DNA of 64,000 nucleotides from an uncultured Candidatus Saccharibacteria bacterium (GTDB lineage Bacteria; Patescibacteriota; Saccharimonadia; CAZBQI01). Shown one piece after another: positions 4,852 through 29,187 of the stretch (positions are counted from its first letter, which is position 1; the number at the start of each line of letters is the position of its first letter). The position numbers and the translations under genes are program-made. The stretch lies in contig CAZBQI010000004.1 in the NCBI GenBank assembly GCA_964494105.1, forward strand, positions 15,810-79,809, read 5' to 3'. The notes beneath the pieces were generated by a model. The model was not told the DNA's origin and made no database searches. It worked only from the letters and a program-made list of their open reading frames with translations.

Positions 4852-6489
4852 ATGACGAAAACGATTGATTTAGAAATTGATAACTCCACCGCAGTTGCAA
4901 GGGCATTTGAAATAATCCCTGGCGCAGCTGCTTGGTTGTTTTTAGTGTCGCCGATTTTCTTAAGCTTGGTTGAGCCGGTTTGGGTTGCTTATGTAATTAT
5001 TGCCTACGATTTGCTTTGGCTTAGCAAGTCTTTTGGACTTAGCTATCGACTGATTTGGGGGTATCGAAGGCTTAAGCAAACCACAGCCATTAATTGGAAT
5101 CATCGCTTAGACGACTTAAACAACCCGCAAGTAGCTATCGAGCGCATTGACAGGCGGTTGCAGAACGGACGAATTCCCCGCGCAACGGCACAGTCTCTTA
5201 GTAAATATCAACAACAACTAAAGCAGATAGTTGATAGTAAGGTCGATCTTATTCAGCCGAGCGATTTAATTCACGTGGTAATTGTGGCCCTTTACAACGA
5301 AGGTCTCGACATTTTGGAACCAACAATCAAGAGCCTTATAAAATCAAACTACGATCCACAAAAAATCTGGGTATTCGTGGCTTACGAAGAACGCGGTGGG
5401 AGTGACACCGAGAAGAATGCAAATTATTTAATCAAGGAATATGGCGACAAGTTCGGACATGCTCAAGCAGTCAAGCACCCGGGTGATACTAAGGGCGAAA
5501 TTAAAGGCAAGGGAAGCAATATTACTTTTACGGGGCGTAGAATTGCCGCTATTGTCAGGCAGCGAAAACTAAAGCCTGAAAACTTTATCGTTACTACGCT
5601 AGATAGTGACAACCGTCCACATCAAAATTACTTTGCATATTTGAGTTTTGTTTATGCCACTACCGCCGATAGGATTATGAATTCTTATCAACCGGTACCA
5701 ATGTTTTATAACAATATATGGGACGTGCCGGCACCCATGCGCATAATTGCTAGTAGTAATACCTTCTGGATGATAATGGAAATGATGCGCCCGCATCGAT
5801 TGCGTAACTTTTCATCTCATGCCCAGAGTTTGCAAACCCTAATCGATACTGACTTTTGGAGTACAAGAACAATTGTCGAGGATGGTCACCAGTATTGGAG
5901 AACTTACTATCGTTATAATGGCAATCACAAGGTTATCCCGCTGTATATGCCGGTTTATCAAGATGCCGTTTTGGCGAAAGGCTATATCCGAACCTTTAAA
6001 GCTCAATTTATTCAGCTAAGGCGGTGGGCTTGGGGTGTGTCGGATGTGCAATACGTCTGGCAACAAAACCGCAAACACAAAGACATTAAATGGTTGGATA
6101 AAAATATTAAGTTTCTTCGGCTATTTGAAGGCCACTTTAGTTGGGCAACAGCCCCATTAATTCTCATGTTTGCCGCCTGGTTACCGCTATTATTAAATCC
6201 GAACTTTAGCGACCAAGTGCTGGCTCACCAGCTACCGGTCATAGCTAGTCGCATCCAGTTAATCGCTATGTTTGGAGTAATCATTACCATCCTAATTAGT
6301 TTAATTTCGTTGCCACCTCGGCCCAAGCACTATAAGCCACATCGTTCACTATTTATGATTGTCCAATGGTTTCTATTGCCGATAACCAGCATTTTGTTTA
6401 CTTCGTTTGCTGCCTTAAACGCTCAAACTCGCTTAATGCTTGGCCGCTATCTAGAGGAATTTGATGTTACAGAAAAGGCTGTAAAGTAA
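4852..6489 (+). CDS. Membrane-embedded family-2 glycosyltransferase (processive, cellulose/chitin-synthase-like)
   Basis: ALYNEG motif, a DSD (DxD) motif, and QLRRW (the QxxRW processivity motif), plus N- and C-terminal hydrophobic helices. Confidence 0.7.
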   Translation: MTKTIDLEIDNSTAVARAFEIIPGAAAWLFLVSPIFLSLVEPVWVAYVIIAYDLLWLSKSFGLSYRLIWGYRRLKQTTAINWNHRLDDLNNPQVAIERIDRRLQNGRIPRATAQSLSKYQQQLKQIVDSKVDLIQPSDLIHVVIVALYNEGLDILEPTIKSLIKSNYDPQKIWVFVAYEERGGSDTEKNANYLIKEYGDKFGHAQAVKHPGDTKGEIKGKGSNITFTGRRIAAIVRQRKLKPENFIVTTLDSDNRPHQNYFAYLSFVYATTADRIMNSYQPVPMFYNNIWDVPAPMRIIASSNTFWMIMEMMRPHRLRNFSSHAQSLQTLIDTDFWSTRTIVEDGHQYWRTYYRYNGNHKVIPLYMPVYQDAVLAKGYIRTFKAQFIQLRRWAWGVSDVQYVWQQNRKHKDIKWLDKNIKFLRLFEGHFSWATAPLILMFAAWLPLLLNPNFSDQVLAHQLPVIASRIQLIAMFGVIITILISLISLPPRPKHYKPHRSLFMIVQWFLLPITSILFTSFAALNAQTRLMLGRYLEEFDVTEKAVK

Positions 6490-6494
6490 TACCA

Positions 6495-7544
6495 ATGGAA
6501 TACATTACAGCCTTGGCTCTGGCTGCAGGGATTAGTTTTATTCTCACGCCGGTCGTAAGGGCCTATGCGATCCGTAATGGTGCAGTCGACAGACCGGATG
6601 CTCGCAAGGTTCACCGCTTACCCTTACCTAGGATCGGTGGTATCGGTATAACAGTCGCCTTTGTTGTAACGTTTCTTATCTATTTTGACCTTAATCGACA
6701 GTTCTACGGCCTATTAGGTGCGTTACTTGTGCTATTTATAGTCGGTTTAATCGATGACTTGCGAGAGCTTAGTGCCTGGCAGAAACTAGTCGCCCAAATA
6801 ATATCTGCTTGTATTGCGCTCGCCGGTGGTCTAGGCATTGTTTATCTGGCAATTCCATTTGGTGGTACGATTGCGCTTGATGGTTGGCGCATACCAGTCG
6901 AGCTTGGCATGATATCGTTCAATTTACTGCCCATAGCGAACCTCGTTAGCATTATTTGGATCGTTGGGATGATTAATACTGTAAATTTCCTTGATGGCTT
7001 AGATGGATTGGCAGCCGGCGTAGCCAGCATTGGAGCATTTGTGCTATTTATCAGTGCGCTATTGCCACACATCAATAACCCGGCAGTGGCGCTTTTAGCA
7101 ATAATTTTACTTGGCTCGTTGCTAGGCTTTTTGCCCCATAATTTTTATCCATCATCAATTTTTATGGGTGACAGTGGTGCCTATGTAATCGGACTATTGC
7201 TGGCCTTGCTGTCGATTTATTCAAGTTCAAAAATCGCTGTTGGGGCAATTGTCTTCGGCATCGCCATTCTCGACGCACTTTGGACAGTACTTCGGCGGAT
7301 TGCTAGCAAGAAATCACCTTTTATGGCAGATAGGGAGCATCTGCATCACCGCTTGTTAGATTCAGGCCTACTATCCCACAGAGAGGTTGTATTAGTGCTA
7401 TATCTACTAACCTTATTGGTTGCATTTGCCGTACTGTACACCAGTGTCTTAATAGCCTCTGTGTTTGTGATTGCGTCGGTTGTTGCGACAATCATGGTAT
7501 TGCGAATAAAAGCCGGTTCACGTAATAAAAGACCGAAAGAATGA
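6495..7544 (+). CDS. MraY/WecA-family polyprenyl-phosphate N-acetylhexosamine-1-phosphate transferase (GT4)
   Basis: Polytopic membrane protein with the NTVNFLDGLDGLAAG motif diagnostic of the MraY/WecA family. Its position after the GT2 gene favours a WecA/TagO-like initiating transferase. Confidence 0.8.
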   Translation: MEYITALALAAGISFILTPVVRAYAIRNGAVDRPDARKVHRLPLPRIGGIGITVAFVVTFLIYFDLNRQFYGLLGALLVLFIVGLIDDLRELSAWQKLVAQIISACIALAGGLGIVYLAIPFGGTIALDGWRIPVELGMISFNLLPIANLVSIIWIVGMINTVNFLDGLDGLAAGVASIGAFVLFISALLPHINNPAVALLAIILLGSLLGFLPHNFYPSSIFMGDSGAYVIGLLLALLSIYSSSKIAVGAIVFGIAILDALWTVLRRIASKKSPFMADREHLHHRLLDSGLLSHREVVLVLYLLTLLVAFAVLYTSVLIASVFVIASVVATIMVLRIKAGSRNKRPKE

Positions 7545-7617
7545 TTGTCTACAGAGGCGGAGCCTGTTATAATAATTCCCTAACGTGTTAAGGAAAGCAA
7601 AGGAACCGGCAGTATAA

Positions 7618-8340
7618 ATGCAAAGTATCACTCTTAAATCTAAAGAACGAAAAGTTCGCGGTAAGAAAAACTCAGCTCTTCGAGCTCAGGGCTCTGTGCC
7701 CGGCGTTGTCTATGGCCAAGGAAAGACCACCGCAATTATAGATGTAGACAATAAGGAATTAGACAAAATATATCATGAGGCGGGTACAAGTCGACTTATC
7801 GAGCTGGTTGTCGACGATAAACCTCCAGTCAATGTTCTGTTTCATGACGTTCAGGTAAATCCGCTATCTCAGCAAATAACGCACTTTGATCTTTATACAG
7901 TTAAAATGGACGAGAAAATTAAAACAGAGGTGCCACTCCAGTTTACCGGTGAAGCACCGGCAGTCCATTCACTGAATGCGATATTAGTTAAGAATCTAGA
8001 AGAAATTGAAATCGAAACGCTTCCAGGGAATTTGCCCGAAAAAATCGAAGTCAATCTAGATTCATTAGTAGAAATAGGTCAATCAATTGCCGTCGGAGAC
8101 TTAAAAATGCCTGAAGGTGTCTCATTGGTAACGGATGCCGAAGAGATGATTGTCAAAACCGATCCGCCTCGTACCGAAGAGGAGCTTGAACAGCTAGACG
8201 AAGTAGTCGAAGAGGGAGCAGAGGCAGAAGTAGAATCAGAGCACGGTAGCGCCGACAACGATACAGAAGCGGGTAAAGACGATAGCAAAGGCGACGACAA
8301 GAACGAATCCGACTCAGTTAAGCCAGAAAAATCCGACTAG
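7618..8340 (+). CDS. rplY: Ribosomal protein L25 / general stress protein Ctc, with an acidic C-terminal extension
   Basis: N-terminal L25/Ctc beta-barrel signature (RLIELVVDDKPPVNVLFHDVQVNP...HFDLYTV). The C-terminal ~60 aa are Glu/Asp-rich. Confidence 0.85.
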   Translation: MQSITLKSKERKVRGKKNSALRAQGSVPGVVYGQGKTTAIIDVDNKELDKIYHEAGTSRLIELVVDDKPPVNVLFHDVQVNPLSQQITHFDLYTVKMDEKIKTEVPLQFTGEAPAVHSLNAILVKNLEEIEIETLPGNLPEKIEVNLDSLVEIGQSIAVGDLKMPEGVSLVTDAEEMIVKTDPPRTEEELEQLDEVVEEGAEAEVESEHGSADNDTEAGKDDSKGDDKNESDSVKPEKSD

Positions 8341-8361
8341 TCTGCTAGTCTAGAGTTGTTT

Positions 8362-8805
8362 CTAAAGGTTACTCAGGAGCTTTTTTAGATCAGATTTACT
8401 TTGAATCTTTGTCTGTTGACCGATATAGGCTAGCCACAACGAAAGGTCATACCGAGCCAAGGTAGAATTAACTGCTTGACTGAGCTGACTAATATAAATG
8501 CTAGCTTGTCCTAGCCTGATTAGCTTACTCTCAATTGTGTCTACTAGGGCGTCTAGTTGGTCTAATTTTTGTTTATCGCCATTCATAACAGACGTAATGC
8601 TGTTATACAGCCTAGTACGACTGTAGGTTTCGTGCCGATTCATCTCCTTGATGATCTTTAAATACTGCATATCAATTCTTTCGTAGGTGCTAAAGGTCTT
8701 TTTGCAGCTTAAGCAACGTCGTCGCCGCCATATTTGAGTGTATTCACGGGTTGGTCGTGAGTTGTACACCGCTAAATTATCCGAATTACAAAAAGGACAA
8801 TACAT
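8362..8805 (-). CDS. nrdR: Transcriptional repressor NrdR (zinc ribbon plus ATP-cone)
   Basis: MYCPFCNSDNLAVYNSRPT...RRRRCLSCKKTFSTYERID matches the NrdR zinc-ribbon N-terminus. Confidence 0.85.
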   Translation of the reverse strand: MYCPFCNSDNLAVYNSRPTREYTQIWRRRRCLSCKKTFSTYERIDMQYLKIIKEMNRHETYSRTRLYNSITSVMNGDKQKLDQLDALVDTIESKLIRLGQASIYISQLSQAVNSTLARYDLSLWLAYIGQQTKIQSKSDLKKLLSNL

Positions 8806-9098
8806 GACTATATGTTGTCATACTGCTGTAAAAATTGCCAGTGGATAACTAATCGCCGTTGGGGGAAAACTCGAGTAATGTGATTAGCGATTAGCAAGTA
8901 TACTAAAGCTGATGGTTCTACTCTGTTGCTTGGACTTTTTCTGCTTATTCTGCTTTTTGGTGCTGGTTTTTAGCGGTATAGGCTCGTATGAGAGCGGGTA
9001 TTTAGTTAGTTTATTCATTTGAGACTGCCTCTATTGGCTTTCAAAAAGCTATTTAACGGTGCAATTATATGAATATTTAGCTTTTTCATTGTCATGCC

Positions 9099-9446
9099 TT
9101 AGTTTTGAAATGCTTTACTGAGAAGTAGCAGAGGGCTGCCGAGCAAGATGGCAAACAATCCGACCTCCAGGGCTAAGCCAAAATTCATTAATGATACTGC
9201 CAGGTCGGTAGTTGCATGGTAACGAGTACTGCTGTTCGTTTGATGCGTCTCAGTTTCACCACTAGCCGAAACTTCCTCCAGGTTGCCATAAATAGAGCCT
9301 ATTTGGACGATAGCTTGTTCTGCCTGGACATTTAGCTGGCTGTTAGCCAGTCGATTGTAAATGTAGTTTCCGCTAATGAGCATTAGAGTTAGTACTAAAC
9401 CTATAAATAGAAGTCGTTTCACACAATTCTTTCTTAAATGTAACAC
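9099..9446 (-). CDS. Hypothetical small membrane-anchored protein
   Basis: 115-aa ORF with N- and C-terminal hydrophobic helices. No recognisable family. Confidence 0.35.
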   Translation of the reverse strand: MLHLRKNCVKRLLFIGLVLTLMLISGNYIYNRLANSQLNVQAEQAIVQIGSIYGNLEEVSASGETETHQTNSSTRYHATTDLAVSLMNFGLALEVGLFAILLGSPLLLLSKAFQN

Positions 9447-9514
9447 TATTGCATGTCCAAACTACAGATGCAAGCATAAGCAAATACCCCTTATTTATGA
9501 TAGTAAGAAGATAT

Positions 9515-12500
9515 TTAGAGTTTGTCGTGATACTCTTGGATCGTCTGCACCTGAAGGTTGTTTTTTTGGAGTGAACCAATCGCCTCGACTGTCGCATGGG
9601 CAGCTGTCATTGTAGTCGTGTAGGCGATTCGGTTGGTAACTGCCAGGTTTCTTAGGGTAACTTCATCCTGGCGAGGATTAGCGCCACTTGCGGTGTTAAT
9701 GACCAAACTAATCTTACCTTTCTGAATTAAGTCGCCTGCATTCGGGTGACCCTCTTGGATCTTCTTTAGTCTAGTTACTTTTAGACTACTTTGGTTTTCT
9801 AGAAAGTCGGCTGTACCACTGGTAGCGGTGAGCGAGAACCCTTTTTTAGCCAGCGACAGTGCAATTTTTACAAGCTTTACTTTGTCACTATCTTTAACGC
9901 TTAAAAACACCACTCCCTTCAGTGGTAATGACACATTTGCGCCCAACAGGGCCTTGGCATAAGCAGAATTCGGATTGGTGTCGATTCCCATAACTTCGCC
10001 TGTAGATTTCATTTCAGGGCCCAGCGCAATATCTATTCCGGTAAATTTTATAAACGGCATTACAGCCTCTTTTACGCTGTAGTAAGGAGGAATTATTTCC
10101 TTGGTAAAGGCTAGTGCGCGCAGTTTTTTACCGGCCATTACCTGGCTGGCTAGTTTAGCCAACGGCACTCCGATGCTTTTTGACACGAACGGAATTGTTC
10201 GAGACGCGCGCGGGTTCACTTCTAAAACGTAAATTTCGTTATCCTTGATGGCAAATTGAATGTTCATCAAGCCAACGACCGCGAGTTCCATGGCCAGGGC
10301 AGTGGCCTGTGCCCTGACTTCTTTCAAGAGGTGAGAAGCTAAATCGATTGTTGGCAGGTAGCAAGCAGAATCACCCGAGTGTATGCCGGCTTCCTCGATG
10401 TGTTGCATGATGCCTGCGATAACAGTAGTTTGACCATCCGAAATTAAATCAACATCGAGCTCAACCGCGTCTTCTAAAAAGTGATCAACAAGCACAGGTT
10501 TGTCAAAAGATATCAAATGCGATGCTCGTTCAAGGTAGTCTGTTAGCTGTTCTTCGGAGTATACAATCTCCATCGCTCGTCCACCCAGCACAAAAGAAGG
10601 GCGTAGCAACACCGGATAGCCAATTTTATTGGCGTATTCCTTCACTTTAGCTGATTCGTATTCGCTGGCACTTGGAGGTGACTGCAGGTTTAATTTTTTT
10701 AGTATTCGCGTGAATTGTTTTCGGTCTTCGGCTGCATTTATTGCCTCTGGCTGGGTACCAATTATTTTTACGCCTGCAGATTTAAGTGCGCTGGCAAGAT
10801 TTAACGGCGTTTGACCTCCAAATTGCACAATAACGCCATCCGGTTTTTCAACGTCTACAATATTTAATACGTCTTCTAAGGTGACTGGCTCGAAATACAG
10901 TCTATCCGAAGTGTCATAGTCGGTAGACACAGTCTCTGGATTCGAATTTATCATTATTGTCTCATAGCCGATTTTACTTAACGCAAAAGCCGCATGACAA
11001 CAACAATAATCAAACTCTATACCCTGACCGATTCTATTTGGACCGCCACCAATTATTAGTATTTTCTTTTTAGTTGTAGGTACTACTTCGCTTTGAGTTT
11101 CATAGCTCGAGTAATAGTAAGGGGTATATGCTTCAAATTCACCACCGCAAGTGTCAATTAGATGATAGGTGGGAATAATGTTGTGATTTTTTCGCCATGT
11201 GCGCATTTTTTGCTCACTAATCTGAAAAATTTTACCCAGCTGTATATCTGAAAATCCGTATGTTTTTGCTTGCATAATTAACTCACGTATTTTTTGATTT
11301 GATTGCCTGGATATCGTAGTTTTTCTTACAGCGAAGTTTTTGGATAGCAAGGTCATGCTTTGTTCGAGTTCAATAATTTGCAAAATTTGATCTAAGAACC
11401 ATGGGTCGACACCGGTTTTATTGTGCAACGCTTTAATGCTTGTGCCTTCGCGGAGAGCGTCGGCTATTAGAAATATTCGATCAGCGTGTGGAATTTCTAT
11501 TTGTTGCCACAGATTGCGATTGTTTTGAGGATTTTCTAAACCATGAACGCCCACCTCTAGTCCGCGCAGACCCTTTTGTAGGGCTTCTTTAAAGTTGCGC
11601 CCAATGGCCATGGTCTCACCGATTGCTTTCATCTGGGTGCCAAGTATTGGGTCTGCACCGGGGAATTTTTCGAATGCGAAACGAGGTATTTTTACCACAC
11701 AGTAATCGAGGGTTGGTTCAAAACTAGCCGGAGTTTTCTTGGTAATGTCATTTTGCAGTTCATCAAGGGTGTATCCAACCGCTAGCTTGGCGGCAATTTT
11801 TGCTATTGGGAAGCCGGTTGCTTTTGAGGCCAGAGCACTAGAGCGAGATACTCGGGGATTCATTTCAATCACTACCATACGATCGCTATTCGGGTCGGTC
11901 GCGAATTGAATATTTGAGCCACCGGTCTCGACGCCAATTTCTCGGATTACTTTAATGCTGGCATCACGCATTCGCTGGTATTCTCGGTCAGACAGAGTTT
12001 GAATTGGGGCTACGGTTATTGAGTCCCCGGTGTGAACCCCCATTGGATCAAGGTTTTCTATCGAACATACGATTACCACATTGTCGTTTTTGTCGCGCAT
12101 AACTTCCATCTCAAATTCTTTCCAGCCACTGAGGTTTTCTTCTATAAGAACTTCGTTATTTAAAGACAAGTCAAGTCCGTGAGATACGATTCTTTCCAGG
12201 TCTTTGGGGTTATTCGCAAATCCACCCCCACTACCGCCGAGCGTAAAGCCGGGTCGAATTGCCACCGGATAGCCAATTCGCTTGGCGATTTGCTTAGCCT
12301 GGGACACCGTATGGGCGATTGAACTGCGGGGGACATCCAAATTTATGCGTCTCATGGCTTGCTTAAATAGTTCTCTTTCCTCGGCTTTCTTGATGCTACT
12401 AAGGTTGGCGCCAATCATTTCGACGTTGAATTTCTTAAAAACTCCGTTTTCTGCCAGCTGAACAGCGGTGTTTAACCCGGTCTGTCCACCCAGTGTCGGT

Positions 12501-12760
12501 AGCACCGCATCCGGCCGTTCGCGCCTAATTATCTTCTCTACGGATACCGCCGTGATTGGTTCGATGTAGGTTTTGTCGGCCATTTCCGGGTCAGTCATGA
12601 TTGTGGCGGGGTTAGAGTTTACCAATATTACTTCATAGCCTTCTTCGCGCAGAGCTCGGCACGCTTGGGTACCTGAGTAGTCAAATTCACAACCCTGGCC
12701 AATGACAATTGGTCCCGAACCAATAATGAGAATCTTTTTTATATCTTTACGCTTAGGCAT
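9515..12760 (-). CDS. carB: Carbamoyl-phosphate synthase large subunit
   Basis: 1081 aa with duplicated ATP-grasp halves and an MGS-like C-terminus. Overlaps carA by 8 nt. Confidence 0.95.
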
Positions 12761-13913
12761 TTGTATTTACCTTGGCTCGTTTAATATTTTCTACAAACTG
12801 CTCAAACAGATAAAACGAATCATGTGGGCCGGGCGCAGCTTCCGGATGATACTGCACGCTAAAGGCCGGGAAGCGAGTAGAGCGGATACCTTCGCAGGTT
12901 TGATCATTCAGGTTAATGTGAGTTGGCTTAATGTCATTTGGCAGTTTCTTTTGGTTAATGGCAAAGCCGTGGTTTTGAGAAGTAATCTCAATTTTGCCAC
13001 TGGCTAAGTTTTTGACAGGGTGGTTCGCGCCGTGATGTCCAAACTTAAGTTTGTATGTCTTGGCGCCGAGTGCGGATGCCAGCATTTGATGCCCAAGGCA
13101 AATACCAAATAATTGAATGTTCATCTCGAGGAGACTTTTTGTTGTGTTGATTACATATTTAACCGCTGCCGGATCACCAGGTCCATTAGCAAGAAATATG
13201 CCATCCGGTTTTTCTGAAAGAATCTCCTTTAGGTTACTGGTGGGTGGCATGATGGTCAATTTGCATCCTAGTTTTTCGAAAGACCGAAGAATATTGTGCT
13301 TTACGCCGGTATCAAGCACAACAATGTGATACTTGCCTCGCCTGTTCCATTGGTATTTTTTAGTCACCGCTACTTCACGAACCAAATCGCTACCACTCAT
13401 AGATTGTGACTTAAGCTTGGTAATGGCCGGCTTTATGAGGCGTTTGTCTAAAACTATGGCGCCTTGGGTGGCCCCAAGCCTACGAATCTGTAAAGTCAGC
13501 GCCCTGGTGTCGATGCCCTCAATACCGGTAACCTTATTCTTACTAAGAAAACTGGCCAAATCTGTGGTGGCGCGGTAGTTCGAGATAGCTCGCGAAAGCT
13601 CCTTCACAATGAAACCGCTCAAATACACTTTGTCAGATTCGTTATCTAAATCGTTAATGCCGTAATTTCCAATTAACGGGTAGGTCATGCAGACCAATTG
13701 ACCCCTATATGATGGGTCGGTGAGCACTTCCTGGTAGCCACTCATGGCGGTATTAAAAACCACCTCGCCTGAGGTGGTTGATTTACTGGAAATGTCGCCA
13801 AATGCTTTTCCCGAAAAGCAAGTGCCGTTAGCTAGCACTAGGTAGGCTGTTTTTGTATCAGCTATCTTTGACTCCTCCCAGACTCTTGATACTTCAATGT
13901 ATGATACTCTCAC
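12753..13913 (-). CDS. carA: Carbamoyl-phosphate synthase small subunit (glutamine amidotransferase)
   Basis: 386 aa with a CPSase small-chain N-domain and the class-I GATase catalytic Cys region (GICLGHQ). Confidence 0.95.
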
Positions 13914-13944
13914 GCAAGCAGGCTCGCAATAGAAATGTTACGAT

Positions 13945-14883
13945 ATGCGCATGAAGTACACTATCAAGCCATATAATTCCGGCTTCCTAAATGTCGGCGA
14001 TGGCCATCAGCTATATTACGAGCAATGTGGCAATCCAAAGGGGTTTCCTGTGCTATATGTACATGGCGGTCCAGGGGCGGGGTTCCGTGATAAAAGCAAA
14101 GACTTCTTTTCTCTGGAGAAAATCAACTTAACTCTGTTCGATCAGCGTGGTGCTGGTAGGAGTAAGCCCTTCGCAAGCATAGAAAAAAACGAAACTAGCT
14201 ACCTCATTGCTGACATGAATAAGCTGCTAGATTACTTAAATATCAATAAAGTATTTTTATTCGGGGGGTCGTGGGGCTCAACTCTATCGCTGGTTTATGC
14301 TATTCGAAATCCAAAGCGTGTAACGGGAATGTTACTGCGAGGAATATTCTTAGGTGCCGATGCCGCTAGTGATCATTTCCTTAACGGAGGGATAAAGGAT
14401 TTTTTTCCAGAGACATGGGAACGATTCTCAGCTTTAGTACCAAAGAGTAAACAGAACAACGTTGCTAAATATTACTATGATAAGATGCGGTTTGGTACTC
14501 CGGCAGAAAAGAAAAAGTACGCTTATGAATGGGCATTTTATGAGGCGTCAATGCTTAGTCTAAAAACTGATCTAGAAAAAGCAAAGGCCAACATGAATGA
14601 ATTTCCCTATAAATCTTTGGCGCCACTGGAGGCGCACTATTTGCTCAATGGCTGTTTCTTACCGAAGGACTACATTTTAAAAAACGCAAAGAATATCAAA
14701 AACATCCCAACGACAATTGTCCACGGGCGATATGATTTCGTGTGCGAACCTATAAACGCTTATAAGCTTCATACAGTCTTGCCAAAATCTAAACTAATTT
14801 TTACTACAGCTGGCCACCATTCATCTGACCCCGAAACAAGAGACACGCTGAAAATAGAAATGGCAAGGATGTCGAAAAAATGA
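13945..14883 (+). CDS. pip: Proline iminopeptidase (alpha/beta hydrolase, S33)
   Basis: HGGPGAG oxyanion motif and GGSWGSTLSL nucleophile elbow. Confidence 0.8.
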   Translation: MRMKYTIKPYNSGFLNVGDGHQLYYEQCGNPKGFPVLYVHGGPGAGFRDKSKDFFSLEKINLTLFDQRGAGRSKPFASIEKNETSYLIADMNKLLDYLNINKVFLFGGSWGSTLSLVYAIRNPKRVTGMLLRGIFLGADAASDHFLNGGIKDFFPETWERFSALVPKSKQNNVAKYYYDKMRFGTPAEKKKYAYEWAFYEASMLSLKTDLEKAKANMNEFPYKSLAPLEAHYLLNGCFLPKDYILKNAKNIKNIPTTIVHGRYDFVCEPINAYKLHTVLPKSKLIFTTAGHHSSDPETRDTLKIEMARMSKK

Positions 14884-14884
14884 T

Positions 14885-14961
14885 TGGTGGATCCGAGAGG
14901 ACTCGAACCTCTGACCTCCTCAACGTCAATGAGGCGCTCTAGCCAACTGAGCTACGGATCC
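14885..14961 (-). tRNA. tRNA-Val (anticodon GAC)
   Basis: Reverse complement is GGATCCGTAGCTCAGTTGGCTAGAGCGCCTCATTGACGTTGAGGAGGTCAGAGGTTCGAGTCCTCTCGGATCCACCA, a 77-nt cloverleaf. Its 3' end lies 2 nt after the pip stop codon. Confidence 0.85.
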
Positions 14962-15137
14962 TCGTCGCAGCTGACTGTCGACTTTCGTTTGCTTGTGGTC
15001 TTTCGCAAACTACAGTCTTTCGCAGCGGCTCCTCTCAAAATTACAAACCAAGCAGTAGCTGTTTGTAATTTTGTAACTAGACTCCATATCTATGTTACGA
15101 AAGGCAAGGGATATCAGCAAGGGGATGGCATAGAAAA

Positions 15138-15181
15138 AGCCGCTTCAAAAATTTGTTAAAGCGGCTCCACCTATTTTTTTG
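15138..15181 (+). terminator. Rho-independent terminator-like hairpin (8-bp stem AGCCGCTT/AAGCGGCT) with T-runs on both strands
   Basis: Perfect inverted repeat followed by T8 on the plus strand and A5 upstream, so it could terminate transcripts in either direction. It lies in the 600-nt AT-rich gap between tRNA-Val and thrS. Confidence 0.45.
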
Positions 15182-15562
15182 TTTGCTTATTAAATATAGC
15201 TCAATAGAAAAACTAATGCAATACTTTTGTGTTCATTATATTTACATTTTATTCATGACCTCTGTAACTACAGATATATAAAGCTAATGTCTAAAAAGCC
15301 GGAATGGAACCGGTGTAGTGGAGTTTGGGCCGGATAAGTATAGTTGTTGTAAAAAATACTAACAGAGGTAATTCATTCAATTAGTTGTTTAATTACCTAC
15401 AAAATGTAGCGTTTCCCAAGGTAACGAACTCCCGGGCTTTGAATAATATGAAAATTGCAAAAAACAAGCTTTTTTTGTTATGTATACAATTTTTTAGGTA
15501 GTTTAATAGTCGTTGCTGTGGAGTATTTAGTTTAGGATGCAATATAAGCTATAATTTATTGA

Positions 15563-17389
15563 ATGAGTAAGAAGCAAATGGACCCTCTATATGCAATGCG
15601 CCATTCTCTGGCTCACATTATGGCTACAGCCATTCAAGGTCTCTGGCCTGAGGCTAAGTTTGGTGTAGGACCGCCAACCGACAATGGGTTCTATTACGAT
15701 ATAGACCTGGGTGATTATTCATTGACACCCGAGGATTTAAACAAACTTGATATTGAAATGCATAAAGAGATAAAAGCTAATCACGATTTTAAGCAATCAC
15801 ATAAGAAGTTAGCTGACGCTCTAAAGTGGGCAAGAGAGAGTAACCAGGACTATAAGGTCGAGCTTTTAAATGACCTTAAGTCACACGGCACTACCTCTGC
15901 CAAAGATATTGATGCCGCTACGCTCGGCATAGACACGGGCGATTCAAAAGTAGATGAGGTATCTTTTTTTACCAATGGTGATTTCACCGATCTCTGTCAG
16001 GGCCCGCACGTGGCTTCAACTGGCAAGGTGGGGGCGTTTAAACTCGAAAAACTTGCCGGTGCTTACTGGCGTGGAAACGAAAAGAATAAGATGCTACAGC
16101 GAATTTACGGTGTAGCCTTTGCAACAAAACAGGAGTTAGATGAATACCTTAGGCTTCAAGAGGAAGCTAAGAGACGAGATCACCGTAAGCTCGGGAAAGA
16201 ACTTGATTTGTTTACTTTTTCGGACTTAGTGGGAGCGGGCTTACCCCTATATACACCAAAAGGTGCAATTATTCGCAACAAACTCAAAGAGATGCTATTT
16301 ACCACACGGCGAAATTACGGGGGGCTGGAGGTGTCAATTCCGCATATTGCCAAGATAGATCTCTATCAGAAATCCGGCCATGCCGAGAAGTTCGAAGAAG
16401 AGCTTTTTACAGTAAAAGGGCACTACGGAGATTTTGCATTAAAACCAGTAAACTGTCCGCATCACATTCAAATTTACAACAGCAAACCTCGCAGTTATCG
16501 TGATTTACCATTGCCTTATGTAGAATTTACTACTCAGTACCGAGACGAAAAACCGGGGCAAATAGGTGGTTTATCTAGAGTACGTGGGTTTACGGTCGAC
16601 GATGGCCACACGTTTTGTACTGTCGATCAGATCAAGCCTGAGGTAGAAAACATCTGCAACGTTATCAGAGAATTTTATTCTAGTATTGGTATGTACGGAG
16701 ATCACTGGGTGTCGTTGTCACTACGCGACCCAGCAACACCAGAAAAGTATATTGGCAAGCCTGAAGGCTGGGATAAGGCCGAAGCTATGCTAAGGGAGAT
16801 AAGCGAAGAAATGAAGCTAGATGCGAAGCCCATGGAGGGCGAGGCTGCCCTATATGGTCCTAAGCTAGACTTCATGTTTAAAGACGCCACAGGCCACGAC
16901 ATTCAACTTTCAACCATCCAGCTAGACTTTGCCACACCCGGCAGGTTTAATCTCGCATACGTAGACGAGAAGGGCGAAGAACAGCCACCGGTAATCATCC
17001 ATTCTGCCATCGCTGGTTCGTTTGAGCGGTTCATGGTTGTTTTGATTGAAAAACTTGGCGGACACTTCCCGTTTTGGCTAGCTCCAGAGCAAGTCAGAAT
17101 TCTAACCATAAATGATGAAGTCAAGGAATATGTTGCTGATTTATGTAAGACTTTTGATAATGTTGTGCTAAATACACCTCTGAAATACAATGAATTACGC
17201 TATTCCGTGGATGATCGGAACGAATCACTCGGTAAAAAGATTCGCGAGGCCGAAACACAAAAGATACCAGCCATCATTGTAGTAGGTCCTCGTGACGTAA
17301 AAACAAATTCTGTTAATGTACGCACAAAAGCCGGTGAAAAATCTGTAAAACTATCTGAAATTGCAGACTATTTAACAACATTAACATAA
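15563..17389 (+). CDS. thrS: Threonyl-tRNA synthetase (class II), N-terminally shortened form
   Basis: MRHSLAHIMA second-additional-domain motif, class II core motifs, and a C-terminal anticodon-binding domain. At 608 aa it lacks the TGS domain. A TATAAT box lies 7 nt upstream of the ATG. Confidence 0.9.
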   Translation: MSKKQMDPLYAMRHSLAHIMATAIQGLWPEAKFGVGPPTDNGFYYDIDLGDYSLTPEDLNKLDIEMHKEIKANHDFKQSHKKLADALKWARESNQDYKVELLNDLKSHGTTSAKDIDAATLGIDTGDSKVDEVSFFTNGDFTDLCQGPHVASTGKVGAFKLEKLAGAYWRGNEKNKMLQRIYGVAFATKQELDEYLRLQEEAKRRDHRKLGKELDLFTFSDLVGAGLPLYTPKGAIIRNKLKEMLFTTRRNYGGLEVSIPHIAKIDLYQKSGHAEKFEEELFTVKGHYGDFALKPVNCPHHIQIYNSKPRSYRDLPLPYVEFTTQYRDEKPGQIGGLSRVRGFTVDDGHTFCTVDQIKPEVENICNVIREFYSSIGMYGDHWVSLSLRDPATPEKYIGKPEGWDKAEAMLREISEEMKLDAKPMEGEAALYGPKLDFMFKDATGHDIQLSTIQLDFATPGRFNLAYVDEKGEEQPPVIIHSAIAGSFERFMVVLIEKLGGHFPFWLAPEQVRILTINDEVKEYVADLCKTFDNVVLNTPLKYNELRYSVDDRNESLGKKIREAETQKIPAIIVVGPRDVKTNSVNVRTKAGEKSVKLSEIADYLTTLT

Positions 17390-17391
17390 GC

Positions 17392-17700
17392 GTGATCTCA
17401 GAAGAATTTAAGGAACGGGTTTTTGCTTTAGTAGGGAAAATACCTCAAGGTAAGGTGATGACGTACGGGCAAATAGCTGCTTTTTGCGGTGAACTACGTG
17501 CAGCCTGGGAGGTTGGGCAGATCGCACACTGTGGCCCAGATGAATTACCTTGGCAACGGGTCGTTAATAAGCAGGGCGGATTAGCTAAAGGCTACCCAGG
17601 CGGGCGAGAGGCGCAAAAACAGCAGTTAGAAGCAGATGGAGTGCAGGTGAACACAGAATTTATCGTTGATTTGAATAGATACCTGTGGAACCTGTACTAG
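17392..17700 (+). CDS. Alkyltransferase-like (ATL) protein: MGMT/Ogt DNA-binding domain with the catalytic Cys replaced by Trp
   Basis: 102 aa with the Ogt C-domain helix-turn-helix (VMTYGQIAAF). The PCHRV active-site motif reads PWQRV. It starts 2 nt after the thrS stop. Confidence 0.7.
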   Translation: MISEEFKERVFALVGKIPQGKVMTYGQIAAFCGELRAAWEVGQIAHCGPDELPWQRVVNKQGGLAKGYPGGREAQKQQLEADGVQVNTEFIVDLNRYLWNLY

Positions 17701-17799
17701 CCTCAGTAAAATAATAAGCTTATGCTATTGCGTGAACAAATAATTTAATGCTAAAATGGTATTTAAATTGTTATTCAATGCGCTTAAAGCGGGGATAAA

Positions 17800-20580
17800 A
17801 TGAATAGAAAAACAGGCTCAAAAAATTCTCCATACGTAAAATCAACGCTCTGGCCGGTGTTATTATTGCTGTTAGCATTGTTTACCGTTGTCGGGGTTAG
17901 TGCTCAGAGTGGCGTGTTGTTTACGGTTTATGACGACAGTGTTCAAGCGGTTAAACTAGTAGTAGGCCCTCGTGGACCCGCTGGAGTAGCCGGAGCTAAT
18001 GGCGCAAATGGCCTGAATGGACTAAACGGCACCATCGGTAAAGACGGTGCAAGCGGAGCTAACGGAGCTAACGGAGCTGCAGGTGCTACTGGTGCCCAAG
18101 GTGTTCCAGGTAGCAACGACTGCATCAGTGGCATTTGTGTCTCCCGCCAAGTTAATACCCCTGGCACCCAAGAAACAGGCAACATAAATATCGATGGTGC
18201 AATTCTAGCTGATAGCCTGAATGTTACTACGGTTACAGCTACAACTCTAGCTGGTAATGGCTCAGGACTAACCTCGCTTAATGCCAGCGCCCTAGGCAGT
18301 GGTACAGTTTCAGATTCCAGACTGAGCGCTAATGTGGCTTTATTAAATGCATCTAACAGCTTTAGTGTTGGTCAAACAATCTTGTCTGGTGCAGCTGGCA
18401 CAACAGGTCTTATTGTAAAAGGCGCTGCTTCACAAACAGCTAACCTGTTTGAAATTCAAAATTCGACTGGATCAGCATTAGCTTACATAAGCTCCAGTGG
18501 AGATATATTTGCCAACAGATATATTTATGCGTCGTCGCAGCTTTACACAGATAGACTTACAGGTTATTCGGCACCGTACGTAACGCTTCAAAATACTGGA
18601 GGCCAAGATACTAACTTCATCCTCGGAACTTCGACCGGTACAAAGATCGGCACTGGAACTAGCCAGAAACTAGGATTTTGGAATGCTACCCCAATAGTAC
18701 AGCCTATCGCTAGTACTTCTTTAAACGCATTATTAGAAACAACTGGGCTTAGAACTGCAGCCGCTACTACAGATCCATCAATTATTATTAAGGGCATAAG
18801 CTCTCAAACAGGTAATCTAATGGAATGGCAGAACTCAGCTGCAACAACAAAGGCATACATTGATGCATCTGGAAACCTCGGCTTCGATGCAAACCAAGTT
18901 CGGGGCATTTACTGGGACGGTCCGACGTTTGCCTCCCTAATGATGAACGGAGTGAATGGCGTTGTCGTTACCCCTTACAGTGCCGGTTATGCAGGTATGA
19001 CTATCCAAGGCCGAGCCGCACAAACCGCCAACCTCCAAGAATGGCAGAACTCAGCTGGCTCGGCGCTAATAGCTGTCAATTCGGCAGGGCGCCTTACTTG
19101 GGGGGCTGATGGGCATGCGCAATCGTTTTTTGTAGATTCCAATCACCGATTCTGGTTCAACAATGACCCAGGCTATACAGGTATGTACATCCAGGCTAGC
19201 GGTGTTCAGGGACAGATAGTTGGAAACCAAGGGCTACTATTTACAAACCAAACCCATGCCGTATCTGTTGCTGTTATGGGAGTGTTAGGACAGACTTTAG
19301 ATCTTCAGCAATGGCAGAACTCGGCTGGGACCAAACTTGCTAGCGTGACTTCAGCTGGCCGGATATATGCCGGAGATAGCTCCACAACTACCTATTCATA
19401 CATTGCACCTGATGGCTCAATTGGAATGAGAAGTGCTGGTAATGAATGGGCGTTTACCTACGCTTCTACTGGCGTAAACCTAAATACAGCCATAGGTGCG
19501 TCAGGCTTTATGCCGGGGGGTGTTGGTACAACTCCCGGAAGGCTAGATACAGGCGGCGGCGGGTTGTCATTATCTGAGAGGTTTCAAGATGTCTATATTC
19601 GGAACTTTAGCCCCGGCTTTACAGTAGCGCAGTTTGGTACGGCCAGCGGTAGTACTGTTGCACAACTACTTACACCAGTGGCCTCAGGAAAGGGATTAGT
19701 TATCAGGGCTAATGCGACAACCCCTGGGAATCTACAGGAATGGCAAAATTCGGCAGGCACAGTATTGTCGCGCATAACCGCGGCAGGCGATCTCTACACA
19801 CCAGCAGGGTCTGTAATTGCTCTTGGCTCCCAGTATCTCTGGAATTCAAATGGAATTAAATACAACGTAGACGCAGGTACCGCCCATACGTTTTTTGTTG
19901 GTGGCACCGAAGTCATGCGAGTTGACAGTACTACTAATGTTGGGATAGGTGACGACACATCTCCTGATGCAAAACTTGACGTCTCCAACACCAGCACGGC
20001 CGGGGCCGTCTTGCAGCTTACCAACAGTGCCGGTACGTGTGACCACACCCCGACTGCCGGTGCCGAAACCGTCAGCTGTAGCTCCGACGCTCGCCTCAAA
20101 TCCAACATTACCGATGCAGCCAGTGTGCTCAGCGAAATCAATGGCCTTAAAATTCACGATTACACCGTAATTGCTAGTGGACAGCAAACAACCGGACTGA
20201 TTGCGCAAGAGGTAATAAACACCAACCCCGAAATGGTCCACATGGGTGAAGATGGCTACTACAAAGTTGATAGCTACAATTCATGGAAAATACTCAAAGG
20301 TATACAGGAGCTCAGCACCAACGCCGATGACCTGCAAACCACATTTACTAGCGCTCTAGAAAAAGCTAACGGTGATATTTCAACAACTAACGACATCCTC
20401 TCTGCACTTGGCTTGCGAGTAGACGACCTGTCGGACAAGCTAGAGGAATTTGCCACAAGGTTAAGCGAACACGACGACCGGCTTAATGCGCAAGACACTA
20501 AGATTCAGTCGCTCGAAGCAGAGATCCAAGCTCTTAAACAGCAGTTCAGCACCGGTTCGGCACCGACCACTAGCAACTAA
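17800..20580 (+). CDS. Secreted collagen-triple-helix-repeat / tail-fibre-like protein with a C-terminal S74-type intramolecular chaperone (autoproteolytic) domain and coiled-coil tail
   Basis: Signal peptide (LLLLLALFTVVGVSAQS), then ~17 Gly-X-Y triplets (GPRGPAGVAGANGANGLNGLNG...). Five internal repeats of the form N/DLxEWQNSAG follow. SSDARLKSNITDA...LKIHDYT matches the S74 intramolecular-chaperone domain of phage tail spikes. The C-terminal ~100 aa are heptad-like. Confidence 0.7.
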   Translation: MNRKTGSKNSPYVKSTLWPVLLLLLALFTVVGVSAQSGVLFTVYDDSVQAVKLVVGPRGPAGVAGANGANGLNGLNGTIGKDGASGANGANGAAGATGAQGVPGSNDCISGICVSRQVNTPGTQETGNINIDGAILADSLNVTTVTATTLAGNGSGLTSLNASALGSGTVSDSRLSANVALLNASNSFSVGQTILSGAAGTTGLIVKGAASQTANLFEIQNSTGSALAYISSSGDIFANRYIYASSQLYTDRLTGYSAPYVTLQNTGGQDTNFILGTSTGTKIGTGTSQKLGFWNATPIVQPIASTSLNALLETTGLRTAAATTDPSIIIKGISSQTGNLMEWQNSAATTKAYIDASGNLGFDANQVRGIYWDGPTFASLMMNGVNGVVVTPYSAGYAGMTIQGRAAQTANLQEWQNSAGSALIAVNSAGRLTWGADGHAQSFFVDSNHRFWFNNDPGYTGMYIQASGVQGQIVGNQGLLFTNQTHAVSVAVMGVLGQTLDLQQWQNSAGTKLASVTSAGRIYAGDSSTTTYSYIAPDGSIGMRSAGNEWAFTYASTGVNLNTAIGASGFMPGGVGTTPGRLDTGGGGLSLSERFQDVYIRNFSPGFTVAQFGTASGSTVAQLLTPVASGKGLVIRANATTPGNLQEWQNSAGTVLSRITAAGDLYTPAGSVIALGSQYLWNSNGIKYNVDAGTAHTFFVGGTEVMRVDSTTNVGIGDDTSPDAKLDVSNTSTAGAVLQLTNSAGTCDHTPTAGAETVSCSSDARLKSNITDAASVLSEINGLKIHDYTVIASGQQTTGLIAQEVINTNPEMVHMGEDGYYKVDSYNSWKILKGIQELSTNADDLQTTFTSALEKANGDISTTNDILSALGLRVDDLSDKLEEFATRLSEHDDRLNAQDTKIQSLEAEIQALKQQFSTGSAPTTSN

Positions 20581-20622
20581 CCCTAACTCAGACAAGCATT
20601 CTGGGTGTGATAGGCTCTATTT

Positions 20623-21492
20623 ATGACGAAGCATGCTCCTTTAATAGCAATTGTTGGCGAAACAGCCAGCGGGAAATCTAGCCTTGCACTTGCACTAGCG
20701 AAAAAATATAGTGGTGAAATAATTGCTGCCGATTCGTGGACAATTTACCGTGAGCTAAACGTAGGTACGGCAAAGCCGAGTCAAGCCGAACAAGCTGAAA
20801 TTAAGCATCATCTGATTGATGTTGTTAACCCGGATGAAGATTTTACAGCGGCGCTTTATAAAGACCTAGCCAATAAGGCGATAACGGAGATTACTTCACG
20901 CAAGCATTTGCCAATTATGGTCGGTGGGACGGGGCTGTATGTCGATAGCGTGCTATTTGATTTTAGCTTTTTGCCGGTAGGCAGTGACAGCCTTAGGACG
21001 GAGCTAGAGGCTTTATCGCTGGATGACTTAGTAAAAAGAGCACAGCACGAAGGCTACGACCTTGCCGGGATTGACCTGCGCAATACTCGCCGGGTACGCA
21101 GGCTAATAGAAACCGGTGGGAGGCGACCGCAAAAGTCTGAGCTCCGTGGCAATACCCTGGTGATAGGCGTAAAAATACCGCGAGCGAAGCTACGAGCAAA
21201 CATTGAATCGCGGGTAGAGATTATGTTTAGAAAAGGTTTGCGCCGGGAAGTTGAAGAGCTGGTAGATAAATATGGCTGGGAAAGTGAGAGCCTAAAAGGT
21301 ATTGGTTACGCTGAGTTTAGGGGTTACTTTGACGGCCAGCAAAGTATGGCCGAAACTAAGCGAAAGATCGTGCGAAACACCCTGAACTTAGCTAAACGGC
21401 AACGCACGTGGTTTAAGCGCAACACCTCAATTCAGTGGGTAGGGAATCTTGAAGAGGCTGATAAATTAGTGTCAAAATTCTTGAACTCTTAA
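20623..21492 (+). CDS. miaA: tRNA dimethylallyltransferase
   Basis: P-loop IVGETASGKSSLALALA and the conserved MiaA core. Confidence 0.85.
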   Translation: MTKHAPLIAIVGETASGKSSLALALAKKYSGEIIAADSWTIYRELNVGTAKPSQAEQAEIKHHLIDVVNPDEDFTAALYKDLANKAITEITSRKHLPIMVGGTGLYVDSVLFDFSFLPVGSDSLRTELEALSLDDLVKRAQHEGYDLAGIDLRNTRRVRRLIETGGRRPQKSELRGNTLVIGVKIPRAKLRANIESRVEIMFRKGLRREVEELVDKYGWESESLKGIGYAEFRGYFDGQQSMAETKRKIVRNTLNLAKRQRTWFKRNTSIQWVGNLEEADKLVSKFLNS

Positions 21493-23962: not shown

Positions 23963-24595
23963 TTGATTGAACAGTTGTTTGGCTCAAAAACTCGCGTTAA
24001 GTTACTTCATTTGTTCTATGCTAATCCGAATAGATCGTTCTATGTTCGCGAAATAACACGAAAAATTGATGAACAAATAAATTCAGTTCGTCGTGAGTTA
24101 TCCAATCTATTAACTATCGGCATTATTAAGTCAGATACTAGCGGTAATCGACTTTACTACGAAGTGAACCAGCGATATCAACACTACAATTCCCTGCGGT
24201 CGATGTTTACCGAGATGAACACCAAAAAAGACAAGGTAGTAGCAAAAAGTGGCGGTGATATTGCTAGTAGATTAAAAGAAACTGGTTCTATCGATTTGGC
24301 AATTTTAAGCGGATTTTTCGTTAAAAACCCCAGTATGCCGGTTGATTTGCTGATTGTTGGGGATGTTAATCGATCACGTTTAGCTAAAGTGGTTCGTGAG
24401 CTCGAAACCGAAGAGAATCACGAAGTTCGCTATGCGGTGTTTAACAAAGAAGAGTTTGACTACCGCTATGACCTTAGCGATCGATTTCTATCGATTATAC
24501 TTGAAGCCAAGCACACTGTTTTGGTTGGTGATCTACCAAAAAACCCGAATGCCAATATTGAAGCGTCAGAAGTGAAACAAACCAAAGAAGACTAA
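23963..24595 (+). CDS. Hypothetical winged-helix DNA-binding protein
   Basis: N-terminal ~70 aa resemble an ArsR/MarR-type wHTH (SFYVREITRKIDEQINSVRRELSNL). The C-terminal domain is uncharacterised. Confidence 0.4.
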   Translation: MIEQLFGSKTRVKLLHLFYANPNRSFYVREITRKIDEQINSVRRELSNLLTIGIIKSDTSGNRLYYEVNQRYQHYNSLRSMFTEMNTKKDKVVAKSGGDIASRLKETGSIDLAILSGFFVKNPSMPVDLLIVGDVNRSRLAKVVRELETEENHEVRYAVFNKEEFDYRYDLSDRFLSIILEAKHTVLVGDLPKNPNANIEASEVKQTKED

Positions 24596-28818: not shown

Positions 28819-28823
28819 AAATT

Positions 28824-29187
28824 GCAAGACTACCTGTAAGCCGGATTCTGTCATTGAAGATGATCATCTATCTTGGCGTATTGTTGCCAATACGCTCATG
28901 CGGCTCTAAATCGTTAGTTCATAGCGGGCCACTAGTCCCAAAATTACTTTCGAGTCGAAGAACTAACTACCTTGCAGCGGATGGGGTTTACCACCACACA
29001 GTGTCACCACTGCGGGATTCGCGCTGATCGCGAAACTTTTCACCTTTGGCCAGCTCGAAGAGCTGACTAGTATTGTCTCTGCGGCACTTTCCCTAAGGTC
29101 ACCCTCGGTTGCCGTTAACAACCATCCTTGCCCTACGCTGTCCGGACTTTCCTCTCTTGTAAAAGAGCGACCACCTAGTAGTCTTGC
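28824..29187 (-). ncRNA. rnpB: RNase P RNA (bacterial type A)
   Basis: Minus-strand sequence begins GCAAGACTAC... (P1). It contains AGAGGAAAGTCCGGAC (P4 5' strand) and GGGAAAGTGCCGCAGAGA (P10/P11-like), and ends ...ACAGAATCCGGCTTACAGGTAGTCTTGC (P4 3' strand plus P1 3' strand). Length is about 364 nt with no ORF in the gap. Confidence 0.85.

Follow-up and report, generated by a model that had tools for sequence, protein, structure and literature searches.

The gene at nucleotides 17800 to 20580 (forward strand) of a stretch of 64,000 nucleotides from an uncultured Candidatus Saccharibacteria bacterium (contig CAZBQI010000004.1; the whole stretch is called the window below) probably encodes a homotrimeric cell-surface fibre that is assembled from phage tail-fibre modules, matured by an S74 intramolecular chaperone, anchored in the membrane, used in binding a host bacterium and altered by cassette exchange. 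Its architecture is well supported by sequence comparison: an N-terminal export/anchor helix is followed by a collagen-like stalk, by a shaft with five copies of a repeat known from uncultured phages, and by an S74 module with an intact Ser-Lys dyad. The gene is embedded in a cellular chromosome, and the part of it that encodes the shaft and tip shows the marks of exchange between strains and lineages. The function as an adhesin is suggested by analogy with characterised fibres. The organism itself is ultrasmall and probably episymbiotic, and the presence of murT/gatD in the window suggests a Gram-positive-type wall. The features of the gene and its product are listed here in window coordinates (nt, nucleotides; aa, amino acids; ORF, open reading frame; HMM, hidden Markov model; i-E, independent E-value; pLDDT, predicted local distance difference test).

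17791..17795, forward: GGGGA, Shine-Dalgarno-like, 4 nt before the ATG, read from the sequence
17800..20580, forward: fibre gene, 926 codons plus stop (ORF listing, profile matches)
17800..17904, forward: predicted N-terminal export/anchor segment, with K/R-rich aa 1-16 and a hydrophobic helix at aa 17-35 (LWPVLLLLLALFTVVGVSA)
17965..18117, forward: collagen-like stalk of 17 G-X-Y triplets, aa 56-106 (uninterrupted run, Pfam Collagen)
18118..18210, forward: Cys-neck, 'DCISGICVSRQ..TPGTQETGNINIDG', aa 107-137, with invariant C108 and C113; holds the 5' junction of the exchangeable cassette
18199..20082, forward: exchangeable shaft and tip cassette, aa 134-761 (breakpoints against the allele P0004, block identities)
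18388..18513, forward: repeat copy 1, aa 197-238, with the degenerate core NLFEIQNSTG (HMM i-E 2e-21)
18583..18747, forward: internal shortened module, 'TGTKIGT..SQKLGFWNATPIVQP...LNALLETTGL', aa 262-316 (comparison with phage fibre proteins)
18763..18882, forward: repeat copy 2, aa 322-361 (HMM; modelled core with pLDDT 84-93 and three short strands)
18973..19098, forward: repeat copy 3, aa 392-433 (HMM, structure prediction)
19243..19371, forward: repeat copy 4, aa 482-524 (HMM, structure prediction)
19681..19800, forward: repeat copy 5, aa 628-667 (HMM)
19801..20082, forward: tip region, aa 668-761 (family C-terminal profile, motif reading)
20083..20100, forward: predicted autocleavage site and dyad, S762-D-A-R-L-K767, of the form SDxxxK (S74 model start, invariant motif)
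20083..20313, forward: S74 intramolecular-chaperone core, aa 762-838 (Pfam, alignments to solved fibres)
20314..20577, forward: helical, heptad-patterned tail, aa 839-926 (predicted helices, coiled-coil profile matches)

The C-terminal module is the most telling part of the protein. A sequence-only reading of the window had assigned it to the S74 autochaperones, and profile searches bear this out: Pfam Peptidase_S74 (PF13884) matches aa 762-813 through model positions 1-57 of 58 with 35.3 bits (cut-off 22), and all 15 members of the family that we assembled exceed the curated cut-off. Conservation of the Ser-Lys dyad had been set beforehand as a check, and Ser762 and Lys767 prove to be invariant in 15 of 15 sequences, as are the D, R and L of the same motif. 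This motif corresponds to the catalytic SDxxxK as defined in PMC10769870. In alignments it falls on SSDRRIKKDI in 6F45, a fibre of phage S16, and on SDERLKREI in 8JOV, so that the dyad takes the position that it has in phage fibres; cleavage is predicted on the N-terminal side of Ser762. The region upstream of this serine is beta-rich by prediction, and helices are predicted downstream at aa 828-855, 860-869 and 874-918 with low to moderate confidence; aa 842-920 keep one heptad register. The coiled-coil tail of the earlier reading thus stands as far as helix and heptads go, but not as a separate feature. The predicted cleavage site is followed by 165 residues, as against 141 in Bdellovibrio Bd3182 (S782 to residue 922), and because those 141 residues are that protein's released chaperone, the tail is most likely the C-terminal part of the corresponding chaperone here.

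A second line of evidence comes from a contig of the Logan collection (L087) whose gene order matches that of the window from the GT4 gene as far as the M50 peptidase gene, and which carries an 802-aa allele of the fibre (P0004). DNA identity between the two is 82-85% through thrS, the alkyltransferase-like (ATL) gene and the first 133 fibre codons; homology then ends at nt 18197, returns at nt 20083, which is the Ser762 codon, and runs on into miaA. At the protein level the identity to P0004 is 98% in the anchor, 90% in the collagen and 57% in the neck, 28-34% in the blocks of the shaft and tip, and again 95% in the S74 core and 88% in the tail. The comparison with P0002, encoded at another locus in another lineage, is reciprocal to this: 37% in the anchor, 44% in the collagen, 86% in the neck, 95% in aa 531-627, 84% in aa 628-761, 79% in the S74 core and 51% in the tail. 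Conserved ends around a replaced centre recur in four pairs of family members (P0001/P0004, P0002/P0017, P0005/P0009 and P0007/P0008). These block identities and pairs show that aa 134-761, the shaft and tip of the predicted mature fibre, form a cassette open to exchange, with the neck on one side and the S74 module on the other; the exchange of just this portion strengthens the case for a role in adhesion.

The gene behaves in every context as a cellular one. All ORFs examined across the window are housekeeping genes, including otsAB, carAB, thrS, the ATL gene, miaA, murT/gatD, comM, a PilB-type ATPase gene, glmS, argS, addA-like, clp, rmuC and other aminoacyl-tRNA synthetase genes, along with RNase P RNA, tmRNA and tRNAs. 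We found no structural, integrase or lysis gene of a phage in these 64 kb. The absence of flanking phage genes, already remarked upon from the sequence, thus extends over the entire window and also to the surroundings of the full-architecture homologues on contigs of 120-700 kb, where the neighbours encode ABC transporters, Dus, HxlR, large surface proteins, DivIC and signal peptidase. These homologues (15) were found only in Saccharibacteria metagenome-assembled genomes (MAGs) or metagenomic contigs, with a cellular context every time, and in GTDB the fibre has relatives at three loci, all of them in uncultured Candidatus Saccharibacteria MAGs. The threonyl-tRNA synthetase of the window likewise has three named relatives, each from a Candidatus Saccharimonadales bacterium, at 61-63% identity, which assigns the window to this group. 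There is one copy of the fibre gene per locus, and in two strains, those of the window and of L087, it lies between thrS/ATL and miaA; no synteny was detected between the window and the homologue loci L001-L007 from GTDB and Logan, L087 being the only syntenic one. A protein search with the neck alone returned 20 candidates with one weak match and is uninformative as to relatives that lack S74. At three loci of other Saccharibacteria (L001, L002 and L004, at approximately positions 7000-21000 of each) the fibre gene is part of an island that is conserved and encodes giant proteins, most of them unannotated; it lies between the Dus/HxlR and the DivIC/signal peptidase genes and includes genes for a ~980-aa protein with LamG, Big_7 and a Pel9A-like beta-helix, a 170-aa protein, one of 1544-1744 aa and one of ~800 aa; it is possibly a surface-protein island.

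Turning to the N-terminus, a Kyte-Doolittle scan finds aa 17-35 to be the sole hydrophobic segment of the protein. Exactly one such segment is present in 15 of 15 family members, with no second transmembrane segment; it is preceded by 15-115 residues that end in K/R, and the collagen run begins 20-30 residues after it. Neither a lipobox nor an LPXTG motif is present in the fibre protein, and a possible signal-peptidase site, VSA|Q, occurs at the hydrophobic segment. Because the homologues have long N-terminal extensions and the protein has no other domain to anchor it, this segment is most likely an uncleaved N-in/C-out signal-anchor, which fits the sequences better than a cleaved signal peptide. 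Of the signal peptide claimed earlier the hydrophobic segment therefore remains, but its cleavage is not established, up to ~115 residues preceding the segment in homologues. In front of the gene, an AT-rich spacer of 99 nt, inside which the GGGGA lies, separates the ATG from the upstream gene. Scans for consensus promoters and terminators at the fibre gene gave nothing beyond what shuffled sequences give, and an Rfam scan gave no match near it.

The stalk that follows is recognised by Pfam Collagen (PF01391) with 32.0 bits (cut-off 27.2). Its 17 triplets, counted in the same way in the earlier reading, are all uninterrupted, the glycines are invariant across the family, and 13 of the 15 members score above the Pfam Collagen cut-off. 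NCBIfam models of the Scl type touch the collagen part only, with 27 and 24 bits as against cut-offs of 325 and 400. The two cysteines of the adjoining neck may lock the collagen helix. The only other cysteines of the protein, C747 and C760, lie just before the predicted cleavage site, and all four are invariant in the family. Besides this second pair the tip contains a capping-loop-like motif, VGIGDDTSPDAKL (aa 714-726), and a degenerate half-repeat, LQLTNSAGT (aa 731-746).

Between the neck and the S74 module the protein is rich in G (13%), T (12%), A (11%) and S (10%; all for aa 110-760), in keeping with the Gly/Thr/Ser-rich, beta-rich region of ~600 aa described before, except that Ala is also high. 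A strict [ND]LxEWQNSA motif begins at aa 339, 411, 501 and 644, and the degenerate NLFEIQNSTG at 215. An HMM built afresh from 1,135 copies that other proteins contain, with a unit of ~42 aa (the 'QTANLQEWQNSAGT' or QEWQNS repeat), finds five units in the fibre protein, each with an i-E of 1e-16 to 1e-21 and thus far beyond chance; the five-fold repeat is therefore real. Its regular spacing, which the earlier reading had also claimed, did not hold up, as the unit starts are separated by 125, 70, 90 and 146 residues. At the DNA level the likeness is confined to 27-nt cores with 78-81% identity, so the duplications must be old. Hypervariation by a diversity-generating retroelement, or recent repetition of DNA, was considered and rejected, the window containing neither a template/variable pair nor a reverse transcriptase.

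A profile made from the five copies of the window retrieves 7,895 representative proteins (clusters at 50% identity) at E<=1e-3, of which 948 are at E<=1e-30; the largest number of copies in one protein is 26, and there is no model of this repeat in Pfam, NCBIfam or PHROGs. The PF18392 (CSN7a_helixI) labels precomputed for some of these proteins are matches of 17 residues, none of which forms a significant stretch by itself, and we read them as spurious hits of that model on the repeat. The repeat-bearing contigs from IMG/VR are true phage sequences, in which portal, head protease and structural virion genes are also present. Phage contigs of the same collection also carry a second module of the shaft, called KLGFWNATP here, which has no covering model in Pfam or PHROG. 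In phage proteins of 215-1661 aa (loci L023, L029, L037, L050, L062 and L072) it always forms the extreme C-terminus, with the pattern 'TGTKIGT..TQKLGFWNATP.VQP ...25-35 aa... LR..G(I/L)LA', whereas in the fibre protein it is internal and shortened. This unusual position suggests that fibre segments were fused end to end to give the present protein, and the module itself may serve to join or terminate such segments.

The phage-fibre parts proposed from the sequence are thus found among portal, protease and virion genes. The uncultured-phage repeat fibres (for example P0013, P0016 and P0121; L071 and L015) share with the Saccharibacteria fibre the ~42-aa repeat and the KLGFWNATP module; unlike it, they have Mtd_N-type or other N-termini, mostly lack the S74 module and the membrane anchor, and are encoded among virion genes. 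Deposits of cultured phages match the fibre protein through its S74 part only (tail fibres). When the 14-repeat P0013 was taken as query against 50,697 cultured-phage records, matches came solely through its Mtd_N N-terminus, so the repeat goes undetected in these records with that query. Homologues in clear prophage contexts had been named in advance as speaking against a cellular fibre; the full-architecture homologues do not lie in phages, and since it is only relatives of single modules that do, this objection does not apply. An origin of the modules from actinophages, which would infect the hosts of such an episymbiont, is unsupported, the repeat contig L071 being related to T4-like cyanophages.

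Among known systems the closest is that of the mosaic adhesive trimer (MAT) fibres of Bdellovibrio bacteriovorus, specifically their S74 subgroup, for example Bd3182 (8ONC, 8OND, 8OML and 8OJN). MAT fibres are trimeric, surface-exposed proteins of ~1000 aa. An S74 domain with SDxxxK terminates 13 of the 21; Bd3182 has been demonstrated to cleave itself, a reaction that the S782A substitution abolishes, binding to glycans of the prey is known for one member, and swapping of tips was discussed by the authors (Caulton et al. 2024, PMC10769870). The other lineages named in the supplement of that paper as having MAT-like proteins are Micavibrio, Ca. Uabimicrobium, Ca. Omnitrophica and a Saprospiraceae; Saccharibacteria are not among them (PMC10769870). 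Both systems are cell-encoded, phage-like fibres of ~900-1000 aa in bacteria that live on other bacteria; both have a C-terminal S74 module with SDxxxK and a beta-rich shaft, a 'VGIG..P...L' capping-loop motif may also be common to them, and in both the distal parts are mosaic and swapped. A profile of the C-terminal 330 aa of the family matches Bd2133 (8OND) with E 2.3e-10, and also 8OJN, 8OML, 8OL4 and 8ON4 ('cell wall surface anchor family' fibres). A profile of the repeat alone matches no entry in the PDB and hence no MAT structure, so the match to Bd2133 must stem from the region of the tip and capping loop and not from the QEWQNS core. The single capping-loop-like motif of the Saccharibacteria fibre is two residues longer than the MAT consensus V-G-G/N-pi-x-x-P-x-x-x-L. 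In MAT proteins a conserved beta-rich N-domain of ~130 aa comes right after the signal peptide; judged by architecture, the Saccharibacteria fibre replaces it by the membrane helix, a 20-aa linker, the collagen and the Cys-neck. Its shaft is made of QEWQNS repeats, unlike that of MAT fibres, and the 21 Bdellovibrio paralogues contrast with a single copy per locus in an organism of the candidate phyla radiation (CPR). As the defining N-domain differs, we do not file the fibre as a MAT member, although in its working it would be MAT/S74-like.

With phage fibres and tailspikes (endosialidase K1F, T5 pb1 and the T4-like gp37 of S16, 6F45) the fibre shares the S74 module and the position of its dyad, the plan of a constant N-terminus and chaperone around an exchangeable receptor-binding part, and a collagen-like segment, which is common among them (PHROG). 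It differs in that its gene lies outside any phage genome, a membrane anchor takes the place of the virion-docking domain, and its cassette moves among the chromosomes of bacteria, with a housekeeping locus as the fixed site. Scl1/Scl2 of Streptococcus and BclA of Bacillus likewise carry a distal domain at the cell surface on a short collagen stalk that is poor in Pro. The Saccharibacteria fibre has neither LPXTG nor a C1q-like head, and Scl is anchored at its C-terminus, so that the predicted orientation here is the opposite one, with trimerisation by a cleaved S74 chaperone. We found no paper in the literature that joins Saccharibacteria or Patescibacteria to S74 or to an intramolecular chaperone.

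These observations suggest how the fibre could be made and used. The N-terminal hydrophobic helix would drive Sec export and most likely remain as an N-in/C-out membrane anchor. The S74 chaperone (aa 762-926, including the helical tail) would trimerise first and template the folding of the beta-rich tip and shaft and, nearer the base, of the 17-triplet collagen. The Ser762/Lys767 dyad would cut the chain before Ser762, freeing the 165-aa chaperone and baring the distal tip. The mature fibre, up to residue 761, would project from the cell and bind a surface structure of the host bacterium. Recombination of the cassette between strains and lineages, at the conserved neck and S74 junctions, would retarget the fibre in the manner of phage receptor-binding proteins and of the MAT fibres of Bdellovibrio.

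Several points weigh against this proposal. Trimerisation, cleavage, projection from the membrane and host binding are extrapolated from the behaviour of S74 proteins and the MAT precedent. Cleavage at VSA|Q could leave the fibre without a recognisable anchor. The match of the S74 core to PDB sequences is weak (E 1e-3), and the S74 fold is argued from the sequence, as the AlphaFold2 (AF2) monomer of aa 691-926 is poor (mean pLDDT 50.9; predicted template modelling score, pTM, 0.22); all structure predictions were of monomers. The AF2 model of aa 317-530 has confident three-strand repeat cores, but its pTM of 0.33 indicates no global packing, and it lacks a significant structural neighbour: a Foldseek search of the PDB gave nothing at E<=1e-3, with a list headed by trimeric beta-fibres at a TM score of ~0.2, which is of qualitative value only. 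The family appears to be limited to a few uncultured Saccharimonadales lineages, and the adhesion factors described in Saccharibacteria are of other kinds, namely type IV pili and proteins with VCBS, dockerin and FN3 domains (PMC10633639).

It is conceivable, but in our estimate unlikely, that the fibre forms a general surface coat or nap, like the collagen-like BclA hairs of Bacillus exosporia, and recognises no specific host. It would then govern surface properties or spacing, or shield the cell, for example from phages or host defences, and the variation of the shaft would be diversification for antigenicity or escape from phages. Such a coat could well consist of beta-rich fibres on collagen stalks with one anchor each; the single copy per locus, with no large repertoire of paralogues, would suit it too, as would a tip in which Pfam and NCBIfam recognise no lectin or other binding domain. 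The S74-matured tip argues for recognition instead, the characterised S74 cases serving fibres that bind receptors or process glycans (PMC10769870); so does a cassette that is exchanged with the neck and the cleavage site as its exact limits, a pattern known from receptor-binding proteins, and the C1q-like head of BclA was not found. We regard as still less probable that the protein is a tailspike-like depolymerase, secreted or held at the surface, which degrades host-cell polysaccharide with a catalytic beta-helix matured by S74. Many S74 proteins are indeed glycanases, such as endosialidase, and PF13884 bears the name 'Chaperone of endosialidase'. Moreover, the allelic centres of relatives show beta-helix-like 'GTITNNYGLYI.DQS' repeats, their fibre genes adjoin Pel9A-like beta-helix proteins, and the possible VSA|Q site would permit release. 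Yet no catalytic family was found in the fibre protein with Pfam, NCBIfam, PHROGs or a PDB sequence search, and its shaft consists of the QEWQNS repeat and not of a canonical right-handed beta-helix.

That the gene is the tail fibre of a virion, a tailocin or an extracellular contractile injection system (eCIS), left by a prophage-like element, seems very improbable to us. Phage relatives exist for all modules, and fibres with collagen and S74 are reported from phages and eCIS (PMC12923769). However, 64 kb of surrounding DNA without structural, integrase or lysis genes, a position between thrS/ATL and miaA kept in two strains, a GC content barely above that of the neighbours (0.48 as against 0.44-0.47) and a membrane helix where a virion-attachment domain would be expected are hard to reconcile with it; context and N-terminus together weigh strongly against a remnant of this kind. 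We therefore prefer the anchored, S74-matured host-binding fibre.

Some other features of the window deserve mention. The product of the gene directly upstream (17392-17700, forward; start 3 nt past the thrS stop) is a 102-aa protein with only the DNA-binding domain of MGMT (PF01035), in which PWQRV replaces the active-site PCHRV; we take this Cys-to-Trp change to be the hallmark of ATL proteins and name the gene accordingly. A PilB/T2SSE-type ATPase (36875-38449, reverse; PF00437, E 1e-99) fits the type IV pilus machinery known for host attachment in Saccharibacteria. The genes otsAB (trehalose-6-phosphate synthase and phosphatase) and carAB (carbamoyl-phosphate synthase), within 532-2846 and 9515-13913, suggest a metabolism less reduced than the usual picture of host-associated Saccharibacteria. 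For the tmRNA (35119-35523, forward) a tag peptide of 29 aa is predicted (AKTSVFSQAREFVASLFTPKMTPAFASLA), which is unusually long, and the RNase P RNA (28821-29186, reverse) is of class A. Two ORFs, of 545 aa (4852-6489, forward) and 210 aa (23963-24595, forward), have no Pfam match at E<=1e-5; the latter keeps its position in the syntenic L087.

Cell-encoded, S74-matured, phage-like fibres were already known; what is new is their presence in a lineage of CPR episymbionts, with a distinct anchor and a delimited cassette. Two large phage-fibre modules for which the libraries searched hold no model, the QEWQNS repeat (~7,900 clusters) and the KLGFWNATP module, are also brought to light. For host recognition in episymbionts of the CPR/Patescibacteria, nothing but type IV pili and a small number of lectin-like proteins has been described as a candidate (PMC10633639, PMC12206443). 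Our findings raise the tentative possibility, which we hold to be short of probable, that some Saccharibacteria choose their host by way of an anchored, S74-matured trimeric fibre on a collagen stalk, acquired from phages, and that horizontal exchange of the cassette at one chromosomal locus lets their host range evolve as that of phages does. If so, host specificity would have a tangible determinant that lends itself to testing, namely a phage-type fibre with an exchangeable tip whose gene keeps its place in the chromosome, and the MAT fibre principle of Bdellovibrio would extend to an unrelated, ultrasmall lineage.

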